From assembly GCA_951406725.2 (NCBI GenBank), contig OX597823.1, positions 28,706,001 through 28,770,000 of the forward strand: a stretch of 64,000 bases of DNA, written 5' to 3'. Shown here piece by piece: positions 970 through 61,029 of this stretch. A program made the translations under genes and the position numbers. Positions within the stretch are counted from its first letter, which is position 1. The number at the start of each line of letters is the position of its first letter. This DNA comes from Octopus vulgaris (Eukaryota). The notes under the pieces are model-generated. The model worked only from the letters and a program-made list of their open reading frames with translations, was not told where the DNA came from and did not search any database.

Positions 970-1631
<662 letters not shown>

Positions 1632-1669
1632 GAGTCAAAATTAAAAGAAGTGTGCCATTGTCATCTAAC

Positions 1670-1708
1670 GAACGATATTTCGACATCTCGTGTGTCTTCA
1701 ACAGGTTC
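1670..1708 (-). ncRNA. Minimal type I hammerhead ribozyme, A6U core variant
   Basis: Minus strand GAAC-CUGUUGA-A-GACA cacgaga UGUC-GAAA-U-AUC/GUUC: stem I GAAC/GUUC, stem II GACA/UGUC, palindromic AUAU stem III, AUC cleavage triplet. Confidence 0.7.
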
Positions 1709-1838
1709 AAAGAATAATTTTGTCAATCTACTTCATTTTGGGTAATATATTACTATTATTATTATTATCATTATTATCTTTATTATAGTTATTATTATTG
1801 TTGTTGTTATTATTGATGTTGCTGTTGTTGTCATTAAA

Positions 1839-3519: not shown

Positions 3520-3560
3520 TTTCCTCCGTCTTCCCTTCTCTGGATCTTTCCTTTTCCTAT

Positions 3561-3595
3561 GTTTCTGACGAAGAGCTCCGCTCGAAACGTAAAAC
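3561..3595 (+). ncRNA. Minimal type I hammerhead ribozyme, canonical core
   Basis: GUUU-CUGACGA-A-GAGC ucc GCUC-GAAA-C-GUA/AAAC; palindromic ACGU stem III; lies in a ~180-bp unit (about 3520-3700) bounded by (TA)n. Confidence 0.85.
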
Positions 3596-3692
3596 CCTCC
3601 TCCTTCCCTTCCTTCCCGAGCGTCCGATAATACTATATTTGTTCCACGTCCTCGCGTTGTAGTGTTTTCTCTTTGTGTTTTCATGTTTGGAT

Positions 3693-3741
<49 letters not shown>

Positions 3742-4394: not shown

Positions 4395-4697
<303 letters not shown>

Positions 4698-5780: not shown

Positions 5781-5850
5781 AATTTACAGTAAAACAGGTG
5801 TATAAACAACAAACAGGTGTATTGGTTTAGCGCTCGAGAAGGTGAGAAAA

Positions 5851-5888
5851 TCTTTTACTTTTCGAGCCTACGCTCTTCAACAGAAAGG
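5851..5888 (-). ncRNA. Minimal type I hammerhead ribozyme, A6U core variant
   Basis: CUUU-CUGUUGA-A-GAGC guag GCUC-GAAA-AGUA/AAAG; same family as 32814-32851. Confidence 0.65.
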
Positions 5889-5956
5889 AAAACAGGGAAA
5901 TAAACAGAGAGGGAATAAAAAGTCTTTATATCTTTATATATATATGTACATATATA

Positions 5957-20580: not shown

Positions 20581-22927
20581 TATATTAATAAAAAGAATTC
20601 AAACCTTGTCTGATTTTCACGTTTTATTTACAATCTTATAATGATATATTATAAGATAATATATTATAATTGAATAAAATAAAATGAAATAGTAGAATGT
20701 TAAATATTCATTCTGATTGAACTAGTACTTTCATGCATTGAATTCTGCAATCTTCGGGTTCATGTAGTAGTGTTGACAGTCATGCTTCACAATTTTTGAC
20801 TGTAGCAAGATGAGTGATTCTGTGCTATAAATACAGCTGGGTAGGCTCCAGAGTGCTAGGTTTTGCAAACCGTATTCTGACCAATCAGTGTGTAGTATCA
20901 CTCAATTACTTAAGCTGATTGGTTGGTTGAGCTGATTGGTTTAGGCATCACGCTTTGTTGGACAGGTCAAGAGTCCTGTATCTTGACCCTGGCCGAAGCA
21001 GCAATTGTTGGGTTATTTTTAGAAATGTTGTAAATATCCTTTGTCAGAGATTTTTATATTTTTATATTTCAATTGTCATCATCATCATTGTCAGCACCTT
21101 AATTATTGTTGCTAGTGGTGATGGTGGTGGCAATAGAACTTTTAACCCTAAATAAGATAATTTTCCTGCTATCTTCGTCTTGATCACCTTTAGTATTGTT
21201 GTTGTTGTTAGTGGTCATGGTCGTAGCAGTGGAAGTAATACCTCTAAGTATTATTATTATTGCTTATTTAGCTTGGGTTCGAATTTATCAATAAAATTCT
21301 TTTCTCTGATTTTCCTCTCGATTTCACTTGGGCTGTGTAATTTGTAGAATGGAAATATTATATATATTTTCCGACCACATGTTGCTAGGTGGTTACTCAA
21401 AGGTATCTGACGGACCTCTGGGTCTCTAATCTGTTGCCGGTGTACACGTGAGCGTTCTAATAGTGCGTTTCCCGTCTGACCTACATATATTTCTTCACAA
21501 TTTGGGCATTTGATGCAGTAAATTAAATTTCTGCTTTTGCAGTTCATATTCGCGTTTGTGAATATTTTCCCGGTTTTTGTGTTTATATATTGACCGGTAT
21601 GTATGAATTGGCATGTGCCACATCGGCTATCATTGCATTTAGATACCGTGAATGTTTGGTCTTTGTTGCTGAGGTCAAATTTTGCCTTTGTTAGTAATGT
21701 TTTCAAGTTTTTAGGCTGTCTTTTACTAAGCACCATAGCTCGATCCTTGATTATGTCTTTTAATTCATTACTTTGGGCAATGATTGGTAGGTTTGCTTTG
21801 GCAATGTTGAAGATATTCTGGTGACATGGGTTGTGTGTCACTATGAATGGTATTACTTGTTCTTGTTTTCCTCTTCCTTGGGTTGTCCTAAGTTGTTGTA
21901 TAGGTATTTTTATAGCCCGCTGTATGCCATTTTCTATAAGTAGAGATGGGTATTTTTGTTTGAGCAAAAATTCTCTTAGTTCTATTAGGCGTTTGTTCCT
22001 GATATTTGCATCTTCTACAATAGTACAAATTCTTCTGGCTAGGCAGTATGGGATGTTACGTTTTGTATGTGGTGGATGGCACGACTTAAAATTTAGGTAT
22101 TGATGTGTGTCTGTGTGTTTATAGTATATATCTGTGGTGATGGTGGTGTCTTTTTTAATTACCATTATATCCAGGAATGGTAATTTGGTACTACTCATCT
22201 CCTTTGTAAATTTGAGAGATGGGTGTAGGTTGTTCAAGAGGATATTGAACTCTTCCAGAGTATTTAGAGATTCTGTCCAGATTATGAAACAGTCGTCTAG
22301 GTATCTCTTCCATGCCTTTTCAATATACTTTCTAAATCCAGTGCCATAGTTTACCTCCACCTCTTGGTAGAGTTGTTCTTCTAAGTATCCCATTACAGAG
22401 TTGGCGTAAACGGGAGCAAACCTCGTTCCCATCGCCGTGCCTCTAATTTGGATGTAATTCTTTCCATTGAAGAAGAATGTGTTATTTTCTAGAACAAGTT
22501 TGACTGTGTCTAATATAAATGGCACTGTGAATCTGCTGGGAATCACTTCTCTATGTTTTTCTAACCAGTATTTAATCGCCTTTATTCCTAAATCGTGTGG
22601 AATATTGGTGTAGAGGCTTACCACATCAAAACTTAGTAAAACTGAATTTGTTTCTGTTGTTTTGGGAAGATGGGACAGGAAGTCGATGTCATCCCTGATG
22701 AAACTTGGTATGTAAGTACATAGTGGTTTCAAAACAATGTCAATAAAATTGCTTAGACGGTGTGTAGGGCATGCTGGACCAGCTATAATAGGTCTAAGTT
22801 TTAGGTCTTTTGGATGTAATAATTTTATGTACTCACTTTCTTGTTCTTTTACTGCCTGTTGAATGTTTTTTGATTTGTGTATTTTTGGTAAGCCGTAGAA
22901 GTTGCTGGGTTTTGGTTCAAAATTGGT
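20581..22927 (-). mobile_element. Penelope-like element (Neptune type), left inverted arm, 5'-truncated
   Basis: Near-perfect reverse complement of 23431-25776; outer end abuts (TA)n. Confidence 0.95.
20718..20762 (-). ncRNA. Minimal type I hammerhead ribozyme in PLE 3' region (mirror copy)
   Basis: Reverse complement of 25595-25639. Confidence 0.7.
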
Positions 22928-22930
22928 CAA
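21257..22930 (-). CDS. PLE reverse transcriptase + GIY-YIG endonuclease, N-terminally truncated open frame
   Basis: FYGLPKIHK, LRPII, SFDVVSLYTNIP, GTAMG, RYLDD, LPFLD, YKHTDT..YL...SCHP, linker CNDSRCGTC, IYCIKCPNC..YVGQTG..R..H; the start codon is a junction artefact. Confidence 0.9.
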   Translation of the reverse strand: MTNFEPKPSNFYGLPKIHKSKNIQQAVKEQESEYIKLLHPKDLKLRPIIAGPACPTHRLSNFIDIVLKPLCTYIPSFIRDDIDFLSHLPKTTETNSVLLSFDVVSLYTNIPHDLGIKAIKYWLEKHREVIPSRFTVPFILDTVKLVLENNTFFFNGKNYIQIRGTAMGTRFAPVYANSVMGYLEEQLYQEVEVNYGTGFRKYIEKAWKRYLDDCFIIWTESLNTLEEFNILLNNLHPSLKFTKEMSSTKLPFLDIMVIKKDTTITTDIYYKHTDTHQYLNFKSCHPPHTKRNIPYCLARRICTIVEDANIRNKRLIELREFLLKQKYPSLLIENGIQRAIKIPIQQLRTTQGRGKQEQVIPFIVTHNPCHQNIFNIAKANLPIIAQSNELKDIIKDRAMVLSKRQPKNLKTLLTKAKFDLSNKDQTFTVSKCNDSRCGTCQFIHTGQYINTKTGKIFTNANMNCKSRNLIYCIKCPNCEEIYVGQTGNALLERSRVHRQQIRDPEVRQIPLSNHLATCGRKIYIIFPFYKLHSPSEIERKIREKNFIDKFEPKLNKQ

Positions 22931-25100
22931 AAGGACTGAAATTCACACCTACACCAACAGCCAACCACCAAGAATTAAAGGAGGATATCCAAAAATTCTG
23001 TCGAAAATTACGACTTGTAGAATTCTTCGCTAACAAAAGTAATGAGATTGATGAATCCCTAGTAAGGAATAAATCAAATTTCACCCCACCAAAAGGAAGA
23101 AATAACTACCTTGACCAATACATTGATATCCTGTCTAAATTTCCCCTTAGACGCAATACCAATGTTAGGCCAAACATTAGCAAATCAGAGATGTCTGCAT
23201 GTAAACGTATACAAAACGATCAAACAATAATAATTAAACAAGCAGATAAAGGTGGTGCAATTGTTATTATGGATACCGAATACTATAAGGATTTGGTTGA
23301 AGACCAACTGAAGGATACAACCTTCTATTGTGAAATACCCGCAAATATAGACCACCACATCATGAAAAAGATCAACAACCTGATTTCAACACACCACAAC
23401 TCACTTACGGATAATGAAAAAGACTACATCACCAATTTTGAACCAAAACCCAGCAACTTCTACGGCTTACCAAAAATACACAAATCAAAAAACATTCAAC
23501 AGGCAGTAAAAGAACAAGAAAGTGAGTACATAAAATTATTACATCCAAAAGACCTAAAACTTAGACCTATTATAGCTGGTCCAGCATGCCCTACACACCG
23601 TCTAAGCAATTTTATTGACATTGTTTTGAAACCACTATGTACTTACATACCAAGTTTCATCAGGGATGACATCGACTTCCTGTCCCATCTTCCCAAAACA
23701 ACAGAAACAAATTCAGTTTTACTAAGTTTTGATGTGGTAAGCCTCTACACCAATATTCCACACGATTTAGGAATAAAGGCGATTAAATACTGGTTAGAAA
23801 AACATAGAGAAGTGATTCCCAGCAGATTCATAGTGCCATTTATATTAGACACAATCAAACTTATTCTAGAAAATAACACATTCTTCTTCAATGGAAAGAA
23901 TTACATCCAAATTAGAGGCACGGCGATGGGAACGAGGTTTGCTCCCGTTTACGCCAACTCTGTAATGGGATACTTAGAAGAACAACTCTACCAAGAGGTG
24001 GAGGTAAACTATGGCACTGGATTTAGAAAGTATATTGAAAAGGCATGGAAGAGATACCTAGACGACTGTTTCATAATCTGGACAGAATCTCTAAATACTC
24101 TGGAAGAGTTCAATATCCTCTGAACAACCTACACCCATCTCTCAAATTTACAAAGGAGATGAGTAGTACCAAATTACCATTCCTGGATATAATGGTAATT
24201 AAAAAAGACACCACCATCACCACAGATATATACTATAAACACACAGACACACATCAATACCTAAATTTTAAGTCGTGCCATCCACCACATACAAAACGTA
24301 ACATCCCATACTGCCTAGCCAGAAGAATTTGTACTATTGTAGAAGATGCAAATATCAGGAACAAACGCCTAATAGAACTAAGAGAATTTTTGCTCAAACA
24401 AAAATACCCATCTCTACTTATAGAAAATGGCATACAGCGGGCTATAAAAATACCTATACAACAACTTAGGACAACCCAAGGAAGAGGAAAACAAGAACAA
24501 GTAATACCATTCATAGTGACACACAACCCATGTCACCAGAATATCTTCAACATTGCCAAAGCAAACCTACCAATCATTGCCCAAAGTAATGAATTAAAAG
24601 ACATAATCAAGGATCGAGCTATGGTGCTTAGTAAAAGACAGCCTAAAAACTTGAAAACATTACTAACAAAGGCAAAATTTGACCTCAGCAACAAAGACCA
24701 AACATTCACGGTATCTAAATGCAATGATAGCCGATGTGGCACATGCCAATTCATACATACCGGTCAATATATAAACACAAAAACCGGGAAAATATTCACA
24801 AACGCGAATATGAACTGCAAAAGCAGAAATTTAATTTACTGCATCAAATGCCCAAATTGTGAAGAAATATATGTAGGTCAGACGGGAAACGCACTATTAG
24901 AACGCTCACGTGTACACCGGCAACAGATTAGAGACCCAGAGGTCCGTCAGATACCTTTGAGTAACCACCTAGCAACATGTGGTCGGAAAATATATATAAT
25001 ATTTCCATTCTACAAATTACACAGCCCAAGTGAAATCGAGAGGAAAATCAGAGAAAAGAATTTTATTGATAAATTCGAACCCAAGCTAAATAAGCAATAA
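22928..25100 (+). pseudogene. PLE RT + GIY-YIG ORF with a 1-nt deletion frameshift near 24120
   Basis: ORFs 22810-24123 and 24045-25100; includes the IKQADKGG motif; ATCCTCTGAAC here versus ATCCTCTTGAAC in the left arm (real mutation or assembly error). Confidence 0.9.
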
Positions 25101-26387: not shown

Positions 26388-26433
26388 AACACAACGTTTC
26401 GGCTGATGTACCCTCCAGACTTCATCGGGTGTC
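26388..26433 (-). ncRNA. Minimal type I hammerhead ribozyme, slightly decayed
   Basis: GACAC-CCGAUGA-A-GUCUG gaggguacau CAGCC-GAAA-CGUU/GUGUU. Confidence 0.65.
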
Positions 26434-26540
26434 TTGGGGAAATTTCGAGTCTGGGTTTCTCGATGTTGTCGTTGTTGTTGTTGTTGTTGTTATTATTATT
26501 ATTATTATTATCATCATCATTATTATTATTATTATTATTG

Positions 26541-32593: not shown

Positions 32594-32775
32594 TATTAGA
32601 AGAAATAAGGTACTCAGAAATCTGGTTGGTTTTATATTTAGAGATTTTTATTAATATGTCAGATGTTTTTATAAATATATGATTTATATATATGATTTAT
32701 AAAATCATGTACCATTAATAAAAATCTATAAATATAAAATCATTCAGATTTCTGAGTACCTCATTTCTTCTAATA
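32594..32775. repeat. Inverted pair of ~60-bp element tails
   Basis: TATTAGAAGAAATAAGGTACTCAGAAATCTG... / ...CAGATTTCTGAGTACCTCATTTCTTCTAATA; a related tail lies at 57720-57800, downstream of the second PLE. Confidence 0.65.
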
Positions 32776-32813
32776 TATATATATTGTTTCTTTCTGTGTT
32801 TCTTTTTTGTGTA

Positions 32814-32851
32814 TCTTTCTGTTGAAGAGCGTAGGCTCGAAACGTAAAAGA
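32814..32851 (+). ncRNA. Minimal type I hammerhead ribozyme, A6U core variant
   Basis: UCUUU-CUGUUGA-A-GAGC guag GCUC-GAAA-C-GUA/AAAGA, in a ~165-bp unit bounded by TA repeats. Confidence 0.75.
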
Positions 32852-32947
32852 CTTGTTTTATTTATATTCCTGAGCACCATACTAATACAATTGTTTGTTT
32901 GTATTCCACCTGCTTTCGTCTTTTGTTTATTTTCATAAAGCTTCCCG

Positions 32948-33003
<56 letters not shown>

Positions 33004-58792: not shown

Positions 58793-60982
58793 TCAGCCAT
58801 TTAATTTGGGGGAGAACTTAGCTATGAAATGTTTTTCCATATTCCTCCTGAAGGGGGTGTCATTCTTCGGACACTTGTAGAAGGGAAATATCTTAAATTT
58901 TCCTTCTCCACATGTAGCTAGGTGTGTGCTTAGTGGTATTTTGCGTAGTTCTTCCTGCCGAATATGTTGTCGGTGGATCCTGGCTCGCTGGCACAAAGAA
59001 TTACCAGTTTCTCCTACGTAATTCTCCTTGCATGTGGGGCAGGTTATGCAGTATATGACGTTCTGCGTCTTGCAGTTCATATCTGCATTTACTTTGAATA
59101 TGACACCATTTTTAAATCTTATCTCTCTGTTGCTCTCTATGTATTTGTAGGTGGGGTTGCTGCAGGTCCCACATCTACCATCTCCGCACTCTTTTGCAAA
59201 GAATTCCGTTTTAGTTTCTGAAGAGAATTTCGCTCTTGTTAGGTGTTTTTTTAGGTTTTTGTCCTGTCGTCTACTGTTTTTTATGCTATATTTGTTTAAT
59301 ATGTTTTTCATTTTGGGGCTCTGTAAGGCTATTGGTAGGTTTGAATGTATGGTTTGGAAGATGTTGGTAACTCCAGGGTTGTGTGTGTTTATAAAAGGGA
59401 TAGTGTTTTCTTTGTTTTTTGTTTTGGGTGTCCTGAGTTGTGTGATGTCTAGTTTTAATGCTCTTGTGATTCCATTTTCTATTAGTTTAAGGGGGTATTT
59501 TTGCTCTAGGAGGAAGCTTTTGAGTTCATCTAGTCTTATTAATCGTATTTGTGAATCAGTTACTATGCTACATATTCGTCGTGCCATACTATATGGGATG
59601 TTTCTTTTTGTGTGGGATGGGTGGCAGGAGTGGAAATTTAAGTATTGATGTGTGTCAGTTTTTTTGTAGTGGATGTCTGTTGTGACGATGGAGTTGTGTA
59701 TTTTGATGTTGATGTCTAGGAAGGGAAGTTCGTTGTGGCTGGTATCTATTGTGAAATTGATAGATGGGTGCAGCGTATTGAGGATGTTGTGGAATGTTTG
59801 TAGGTCCTCTTCTGATCTGTTCCAAAAGATGAAACAGTCATCGAGGTAGCGTTTCCACTTTTTCTTGATGTCTTCTCTGAAGTCGTGTTCGAAGACTTTC
59901 CCTATTTCGTCATATAGTTTTTTCTCCAGGAAGCCCATCACTAGGTTGGCATATGAAGGTGCGAATTTTGTACCCATAGCCGTGCCTTTTATCTGTCGGT
60001 ATGTCTTGTTGTTGAATGAGAATGTGTTTTCTTCTAGTATTAGTTGGGTGGCTTGGGTGATAAAGTTTGTCTTGAAGCGTTCATCTATAAGTTCTCTGTA
60101 TTTTTCTATTGATTGTTTTATAGCTTCTAGACCTAGGGTGTGTGGTATGTTTGTGTATAGATTTGTGACATCAAAGCTTGCAAGTATGGTGTTTTTCGGG
60201 ACTGTATTTGGAATGTGTGTGAGGAAGTCTATGTCATCCCTTATGTAGCTTGGAATCTGTGGGCATAGAGGTTTGAGGAGTATATCTATGAAGTGGCTTA
60301 GTTGTTGTGTTGGTGCCTGGGGTCCTGCCACTATTGGTCTCATCGTGAGGTCTGCAGGTCTTTGTACTCTTATGTAGTGGTTCCTCTGTTCCTTTATGGC
60401 TCTCTGTATTTCCGAGCTTTTATGAATTTTAGGTAATCCATAAAAGTTGCTTTCTTTGGTTTGTGAGTTGCATAGATAATCTTCCTCCTTATCTGTAAAG
60501 GAGTCCTGATATTCATTGACTAAAGTTCTAATTTTTCTTATTGTTGTTTTCTCCGGTGGTGTTGGTTCCTCTTTGTAATATGTCTGGTTGTTCAGTAACT
60601 CTAGTATCTTTTCTTTGTAGTAATCTGTGTCCATAATTACTATTGCTCCACCTTTGTCAGCTTCTTTTATAACGATTGATTTGTCATTTTTCAGTTTTTG
60701 TAGGGCTTGCTTTTCTTCTCTGCGGAGATTCTGTTTGCATTTGTGTGTGTGAAGAGGGAATTTGGATATTGTTTCTATGTACGTGTCAAGGTGTTTGTCA
60801 CTTCCCTTGTAAGGGGTGAAGTGGGATTTTTTTCTTATGATTGAGTTATCTTCTGTTTCTTTATTTTCAAAGAATTCCATAAGGCGGAGGTAGCGGCTGA
60901 AGTTATCTATGTCAGTTTTTAGTTCTATGAGGTTTGGAGTGGGTGTAGGTGTAAATTTGAGGCCTTTTAGTAGTAGGTTCAT
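58793..60982 (-). CDS. PLE reverse transcriptase + GIY-YIG endonuclease, intact; frame stays open upstream to about 61120
   Basis: KGLKFTP, IKEADKGG, FYGLPKIHK, FDVTNLYTNIP, GTAMG, RYLDD, LPFLD, CGDGRCGTC, VIYCITCPTC..YVGETG. Confidence 0.95.
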   Translation of the reverse strand: MNLLLKGLKFTPTPTPNLIELKTDIDNFSRYLRLMEFFENKETEDNSIIRKKSHFTPYKGSDKHLDTYIETISKFPLHTHKCKQNLRREEKQALQKLKNDKSIVIKEADKGGAIVIMDTDYYKEKILELLNNQTYYKEEPTPPEKTTIRKIRTLVNEYQDSFTDKEEDYLCNSQTKESNFYGLPKIHKSSEIQRAIKEQRNHYIRVQRPADLTMRPIVAGPQAPTQQLSHFIDILLKPLCPQIPSYIRDDIDFLTHIPNTVPKNTILASFDVTNLYTNIPHTLGLEAIKQSIEKYRELIDERFKTNFITQATQLILEENTFSFNNKTYRQIKGTAMGTKFAPSYANLVMGFLEKKLYDEIGKVFEHDFREDIKKKWKRYLDDCFIFWNRSEEDLQTFHNILNTLHPSINFTIDTSHNELPFLDINIKIHNSIVTTDIHYKKTDTHQYLNFHSCHPSHTKRNIPYSMARRICSIVTDSQIRLIRLDELKSFLLEQKYPLKLIENGITRALKLDITQLRTPKTKNKENTIPFINTHNPGVTNIFQTIHSNLPIALQSPKMKNILNKYSIKNSRRQDKNLKKHLTRAKFSSETKTEFFAKECGDGRCGTCSNPTYKYIESNREIRFKNGVIFKVNADMNCKTQNVIYCITCPTCKENYVGETGNSLCQRARIHRQHIRQEELRKIPLSTHLATCGEGKFKIFPFYKCPKNDTPFRRNMEKHFIAKFSPKLNG

Positions 60983-61029
60983 TTCATATTCGTCAAGTTC
61001 TCTTTTAGATAAGTTTATTATTTTGGGGT

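Follow-up and report, generated by a model that had tools for sequence, protein, structure and literature searches.

Minimal type I hammerhead motifs with U at core position 6 in two unrelated element families of the Octopus vulgaris genome

Two element families in the genome of Octopus vulgaris carry, as their consensus, a minimal hammerhead motif with U instead of A at core position 6 (U6), and we regard U6 as a real, new variant among the known minimal type I hammerheads of Penelope-like elements (PLEs). We met it at three sites of a 64,000-nucleotide stretch of contig OX597823.1 (hereafter the window), of which site 1 belongs to family 2 and sites 2 and 3 belong to family 1. Our preferred reading, to which we assign a probability of roughly 0.5, is that the U6 motif is a damped, probably protein-assisted ribozyme rather than a dead one, present in two PLE lineages.

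The three sites share one order of parts: C3 U4 G5 U6 U7 G8 A9, one extra A between positions 9 and 10.1 (A9.1), a helix II that opens with G10.1-C11.1, then GAAA, a short helix-III strand, H17, and helix I (Table 1). A rereading of the sequence confirmed the preliminary description in its claims that CUGUUGA replaces CUGANGA at all three sites and that helices I and II are paired in each. The helix-III strand is self-complementary at site 1 (AUAU) and at site 3 (ACGU). At site 2 this palindrome is broken (AAGU), a defect absent from that description, and as a single copy site 2 has no intact helix III. With this exception, helices I and II and the self-complementary helix-III strand of a type I three-helix junction were all present, and the consensus of neither family has the A at position 6 of CUGANGA. 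The stems of site 1 do differ from those of the other two sites, as had been claimed, with no cross-family BLAST match over the motif. Two trivial accounts of the core were rejected. A shifted register, with UUGAAGA taken for a C3U core, would disrupt helix II at each of the three sites, and A-to-I editing cannot convert U to A and was ruled out as the source of U6.

Table 1. Hammerhead motifs and the element copies that hold them (positions in the window), with loci of the repeat groups that were rejected.
Feature	Position or loci	Strand	Details
Partial family-2 mini-element copy	1628..1750	-	124 nt aligned, 89.5% to array unit; between (TAA)n tracts
Site 1, minimal type I hammerhead motif, family 2, U6 core	1670..1708	-	U6 at 1701, C3 at 1704; helix I 4 bp plus terminal U-G, helix II 4 bp
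Site 1, predicted cut	after C at 1674	-	H17 = C
Canonical A6 minimal hammerhead (CUGACGA), sister family of family 1	3561..3595	+	core at 3565
Family-1 pLTR fragment holding site 2	5795..5904	-	72% identity to intact element's 3' end
Site 2, minimal hammerhead motif, family 1 older subfamily, U6 core	5852..5887	-	U6 at 5880, C3 at 5883; helix I 4 bp, helix II 4 bp
5'-truncated family-1 3' end holding site 3	32788..32951	+	92.9% over 168 nt to intact copy; ends at (TA)n tract
Site 3, minimal hammerhead motif, family 1 young subfamily, U6 core	32814..32851	+	U6 at 32822, C3 at 32819; helix I 5 bp, helix II 4 bp
Site 3, predicted cut	after A at 32846	+	H17 = A
Rejected repeat group	L196, L198, L200, L203
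Rejected repeat group	L177, L181, L194
Rejected repeat group	L175, L176

A strict descriptor applied to the 64-kb window recovered two U6 motifs and one A6 motif, and returned 0.01 U6 motifs per shuffled window in 100 shuffles. No hammerhead model appeared among the 150 of 155 Rfam matches listed (E <= 1), and the A6 copy at 3565 was likewise unmatched. This canonical A6 motif is a natural control and outgroup for family 1. Between TA tracts at 3520-3700 (+) lies the 3' terminus of an A6 sister of family 1.

Pattern counts over the 2.8-Gb genome showed U6 to be the consensus of family 1. A 24-letter family-1 pattern with positions 6 and 7 left free had 20,091 exact matches (control, 0), and 19,249 of these (95.8%) carried U6. 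Among the first 100 of the 842 non-U6 copies, counted by hand, C was the most frequent letter (73 C, 21 A, 6 G); like the core-free tally given below, this list comes entirely from the start of contig C1. Many C6 copies carry U7 and some lie deep in the tree (L032, L037); an old C6 subfamily may exist. A core-free pattern with the stems fixed gave 19,333 matches, and in a hand tally of the first 100 the core letters were nearly uniform (U4 97, G5 97, U6 94, G8 96). Position 7 was mixed (U 43, C 23, A 18, G 16), H17 was A in 78, U in 20, G in 1 and C in 1, and the remaining frequent changes were CpG decay.

To avoid selecting on the motif, we also picked copies by their flank, taking the first 100 of 20,661 matches to a 19-letter tail word; 80 of these span the motif, and 20 that were truncated or non-homologous over it were dropped. 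U6 was present in 78 of the 80 (77 by pairwise alignment), as was U4 in 78, and C3-G8, G5, A9, G12, A13, A14 and A15.1-U16.1 were each kept in 75-80 copies, with H17 = G in only two. Columns were called variable when the minor letter reached at least 10%, CpG decay left out. By this measure none of the 30 constrained motif columns varied, compared with 15 of 50 in the tail (p = 6e-4) and 18 of 30 in the low-complexity upstream sequence, and within the motif only N7 and H17 were polymorphic between subfamilies. The ten unpaired core columns by themselves gave a borderline result (0/10 versus 15/50, p = 0.054), and loop II was as invariant as the core. These counts show that the family-1 block is conserved and suggest catalysis as the reason. 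Since loop II is equally invariant and the unpaired-core test is borderline, the whole block may be kept for a non-catalytic reason.

In the tree of family 1, N7 changed at least four times (among four states) and H17 at least twice (A or U), with U6 staying throughout and no subfamily-level change at C3, U4, G5, G8, A9, G12, A13 or A14. Sister families with related tails had A6 in 20 of 20 copies. In a tree built from the flanks only (74 of 79 rows, five with microsatellite flanks having been dropped and two long branches later), these sisters fell outside family 1 with 100/100 support; U6 is therefore likely to be the derived state in this family. At the base of family 1 there is a small A6 subfamily, separated from the U6 copies with weak support (82/22). 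The idea that position 6 covaries with nucleotide 9.1 was rejected, since A9.1 is shared by U6 and A6 families. Position 6 shows no difference in contigs labelled as other organisms (organisms B and E), weak evidence given that the same table also misses the variable N7. For contigs from putative RNA runs, which cover the region but by their nature do not show ends, the listing contained no splice-like joint at the motif.

Family 1 is a young, autonomous 4.5-kb Penelope-like element of the EN+ type with a Neptune/Nematis-type linker. Its motif lies 3' of a GIY-YIG-type frame. A protein search for family-1 frames yielded 5,060 candidates, of which 150 were scored; in seven of 20 regions fetched near long frames, two motifs lay 4.3-4.5 kb apart around the reverse transcriptase-endonuclease (RT-EN) frame, and all motifs in these seven regions were U6. 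An uninterrupted 974-aa frame is present in one copy; in it the RT matched Pfam RVT_1 above the cut-off (E 1.6e-7) and the motifs DKG, YIDD, YIGQT and Cys/His could be read by eye. No Pfam match was obtained for the endonuclease of this frame, and GIY-YIG was assigned from motifs by eye. The endonuclease is preceded by a CX4CxxC linker, and a CX2-5CxxC linker between RT and EN is a trait of Neptune and Nematis (PMC8557442). The intact copy has 533-nt terminal direct repeats (pLTRs) that are 99.1% alike and each hold a hammerhead, and it is flanked by (TA)n. Four further full-length copies showed 99.6, 99.0, 99.0 and 97.6% identity to it; the first three, being on small unplaced contigs, may be duplicates created by the assembly, and the fourth is chromosomal. 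A pyrimidine tract precedes the family-1 core. In the window, a long imperfect inverted repeat of MITE-like appearance (by eye) was seen at about 32600-32775, directly upstream of the family-1 copy.

Family 2 is a different kind of repeat, a non-coding unit of 151 bp with one type I motif per unit. It forms an array of 20.4 copies with 97% matches on contig C1 (L234:3232-6318; G000:C1:33.626 Mb), whose units carry the double core change U4A + A6U, and the same core occurs in many dispersed copies. The dispersed copies sit in (TAA)n tracts, often as inverted pairs. Adjacent to family-2 copies, some TAA tracts (L057, L060, L062, L074) also contain fragments of another non-LTR retrotransposon (RT plus restriction-like endonuclease), which we take to be R4/Dong-like. 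Among 40 exact family-2 copies, 38 had U6, two had G6 and none had A6. With this result and the 95.8% of family 1, the possibility raised in the preliminary description that U6 is only sporadic falls away.

After duplicate loci had been removed, 109 dispersed family-2 segments were available for an analysis of ends. Ninety-five of them terminate within one of two zones (phases 50-79 and 100-129), and the 3' end of the copy in the window lies within one of the two; two preferred 3' ends are a Penelope signature (PMC11167929). The 5' ends are scattered, with five of 109 in the 10-nt bin of the cut site. Half a hundred segments (50/109) are longer than one unit, which fits a circular or tandem transcript as their source.

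Over a stretch of about 120 nt the 151-nt unit matches the 3' terminus of a second PLE lineage at 64-68%; the endonuclease of that lineage has 29% identity to its family-1 counterpart. The core of this lineage is UCGACAA or UUGACAA (U3-A8, with A6), and one relative has CUGAAGA. Family 2 derives from another Penelope lineage that has A6 relatives; an autonomous U6 parent was not found among 95 family-2 and 20 sister loci. Comparison of families 1 and 2 gave no alignable DNA, only 7-8-nt BLAST word matches at E >= 2. Because the families are unrelated at the DNA level and each has A6 relatives, the recurrence in unrelated families proposed in the preliminary description is real, and U6 likely arose twice, separately in family 2. 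The UCGACAA/UUGACAA family itself (L265-L284, e.g., G000:C2:60316916 and C1:13608670) lies 3' of GIY-YIG remnants and shows U3-A8 compensation together with U4C at the subfamily level.

Two-sided changes occurred in lineage 2, where the 3-8 pair went from C-G to U-A and a helix-II pair from A-U to G-C (eight cells in 14 distinct hand-picked rows, two events). A core-free family-2 pattern returned 456 rows, and the first 100, counted by hand, comprised 25 CUGUNGA, 39 U4A (22 dispersed, 17 in the array), 11 C3U with G8, 17 of the U3-A8 sister and eight others. Position 4 is U in the site-1 copy of the window and A in those 39 lineage-2 rows, and the youngest clade of family 2 mixes CUG and CAG (U4A) cores (support 99/97). 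Given this later spread with U4A and C3U at the subfamily level, catalysis in family 2 is possibly eroding; constraint may have loosened further there, and cutting may by now be lost.

At the scale of the genome, a loose A6 minimal-hammerhead pattern for all families gave 14,331 matches (control, 649), fewer than the exact U6 copies of family 1 alone. With families 1 and 2 subtracted, the U6 pattern still had 698 matches versus 323 in the control, and no third convincing U6 family was found in the 30 loci fetched. The well-paired loci among those 30 turned out to be a subfamily of family 2 with G-C in helix II. Three small repeat groups with the U6 pattern (Table 1) were rejected for H17 = G and unpaired stems, and one extra U6 copy was not counted as it belonged to an A6 family.

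The reading of U6 as a damped ribozyme can be set out as follows. U6 would lose the core contacts of A6, and folding predicts a pair between U6 and A15.1 that zips U4-G5-U6-(N7) and the helix-III strand together. The monomer would then rest as an inactive rod, and dimer formation would be disfavoured. Reverse transcription starts at the 3' end of the element, and the predicted 3' cut site of family 1 is some 104 nt upstream of it, so that a cut would sever the RT start signal from the body of the RNA and the template would be safer with slow cutting. With help from the element's own protein, as reported for a Penelope element of Anolis, residual cutting would still trim or circularise transcripts.

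Several predictions and reports bear on these steps. In the predicted monomer fold of both families, U4-G5-U6-U7 pairs onto A14-A15.1-15.2-16.2. The predicted probability that position 6 pairs with 15.1 was 0.45-0.86 in natural U6 copies of family 1 and 0 in A6 and C6 copies; for three family-2 cores it was 0.85, 0.31 and 0.13, the last for CUGUGGA. By the same kind of prediction, C6 copies reach similar off-pathway energies through other folds, and whole-motif folding z-scores are unremarkable. That only U can pair with A15.1 could explain why both lineages took U, a weak argument resting on two events. The U6 carriers were mobile, with full-length family-1 copies holding U6 at both ends. No peak of genomic 5' ends was seen at the predicted family-1 cut (four to five of 57 distinct loci among the first 100 rows), in a test confounded by TA microhomology and CpG decay. 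A natural A6C hammerhead cleaves slowly but detectably, at under 0.1 per min and with a preference for Mn2+ (PMC3088659, PMC7151607), cleavage by a PLE hammerhead depends on the element's protein and insertion in vitro proceeds unimpaired in its catalytic mutants (PMC11167929), PLE hammerheads are slow even as dimers, and a scan of a type III hammerhead gave low activity for all single mutants of the CUGA region (PMC9901934). On this model, A6U likely slows cutting rather than abolishing it.

A more ambitious version, unlikely as it stands, would make A6U a convergently selected safety catch. The rod would keep the RNA uncut until the element's own RT-EN protein remodels it, and the U6 motifs would form an active, protein-gated class, more numerous than any other minimal hammerhead in this genome and missed by CUGANGA searches in every genome.

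The most serious competitor, and a possible one, is that U6 motifs do not cut at all, the block being an RNA shape or sequence bound by RT-EN near the RT start and A6U the first step in a loss of catalysis. The dispensability of cleavage for insertion in vitro (PMC11167929), the proliferation of Naiads without canonical hammerheads (PMC8557442) and the low activity of CUGA single mutants (PMC9901934) all agree with it, as do the spread of family 2 with U4A and C3U added, the missing cut-site peak of genomic 5' ends and the conservation of loop II. It does not readily account for family 1, where precisely the two positions that the chemistry leaves free, N7 and H17, have changed, with the rest of the core unchanged at the subfamily level and G all but absent at H17 (2/80). 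The opposite possibility, that U6 is nearly neutral because the extra A, a dimeric helix III and help from the protein give about the function of A6, would make the abundance of U6 a matter of hitch-hiking. Fixation of U6 on two occasions with the other family-1 core letters held would suit it, and so would the tolerance of lineage 2 for U3-A8 and U4C. We consider it improbable, since position 6 did not drift like N7 after the change (U in 78/80) and since A6C and other CUGA changes lower activity (PMC3088659, PMC7151607, PMC9901934). The extra A, moreover, is also present in the A6 sisters (20/20) and is therefore no specific compensation.

More improbable still is an overlapping role of the DNA or of splicing in the pLTR, as an internal promoter or a 3' splice site after the pyrimidine tract, with the hammerhead look as inherited baggage. 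The tract before the family-1 core invites this idea, and the intron of Drosophila Penelope ends at helix I (PMC4209133). However, the first AG past the tract shifts with N7 among subfamilies, family 2 shows the identical change in a different upstream context, and in lineage 2 the two-sided changes are in keeping with pairing in the RNA. Mutational decay copy by copy, or chance resemblance, is practically negligible as an explanation. Single copies do decay, as seen in helix III of site 2 and in CpG changes, but U6 prevails genome-wide (95.8%), is found in young full-length copies and is expected by chance at only 0.01 per shuffled window. The preliminary description had proposed a tolerated or selected variant rather than decay. 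Its dismissal of decay holds, and so does tolerance as regards transposition; selection and surviving catalysis are proposals. A damped, probably protein-assisted ribozyme remains the reading we prefer.

Among known systems, the U6 motifs most resemble the hammerheads in the pLTRs of metazoan PLEs (PMC4209133, Cervera and de la Pena 2014), which are likewise of type I, with a short helix I, an extra nucleotide between 9 and 10.1, G10.1-C11.1 and a palindromic helix III for dimer folding, and which likewise occur in both pLTRs around an RT-EN frame and in thousands of truncated copies. The U3-A8 variant is also common to those motifs and this genome. All 56 representative motifs in Fig. S3 of that study have A6 (consensus CUGANGAH), as its descriptor requires A6, whereas U6 is the consensus here in two unrelated families, one of them the largest found. 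A natural substitution at position 6 is known from phage Bcep176 (Perreault 2011, PMC3088659; Naghdi 2020, PMC7151607), where it is C in one phage sequence; here it is U, fixed in about 19,000 exact copies and two lineages. The Poseidon element PAc of Anolis (Frangieh 2024, PMC11167929) shares with the elements described here a hammerhead upstream of internal RT start sites and AT-rich targets, and with family 2 the two preferred 3' ends; it differs in linker from family 1, and its tests concerned C3/G8, position 6 not being their subject. Family 2 recalls animal non-LTR retrozymes (PMC7229834; bioRxiv 10.64898/2026.07.22.740005) in its short non-coding tandem unit with one type I motif each, its circularly permuted copies longer than a unit and its homology to a PLE terminus. 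Unlike retrozymes as described in those sources, family 2 has a core that is minimal and variant (U6, then U4A or C3U).

The literature check on core variants proposed in the preliminary description found A6C in print; the full-text literature covered, with PMC2553840 among it and Lunse 2017 and Brill 2024 apart, yielded no report of a natural U6 hammerhead.

The result matters for hammerhead searches because A6 is treated as invariant and hard-coded in descriptors. That standard descriptors would overlook U6 had been foreseen, and it is so, CUGANGA requiring A6. Since one U6 family alone outnumbers all loose A6 matches, hammerhead censuses come out too low, and variant cores may be present in some elements described as lacking hammerheads. 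The genome also offers a natural allelic series (A6 sisters, U6, U6+U4A, U6+C3U and U3-A8) along with a full-length autonomous element, which makes it directly testable whether PLEs need, tolerate or avoid ribozyme cleavage.

Other sequences of related kinds were observed in the window. Two hammerhead-like motifs with a longer helix II, one CUGAUGA and one CCGAUGA (U4C), lie at 4435-4490 (-) and at about 26390-26440 (-). Remnants of other Penelope-like RT-EN frames, with 28-31% identity to family 1, occur at 58901-60985 (-), 22930-25067 (+) and 21290-22915 (-), the latter two forming an inverted pair.
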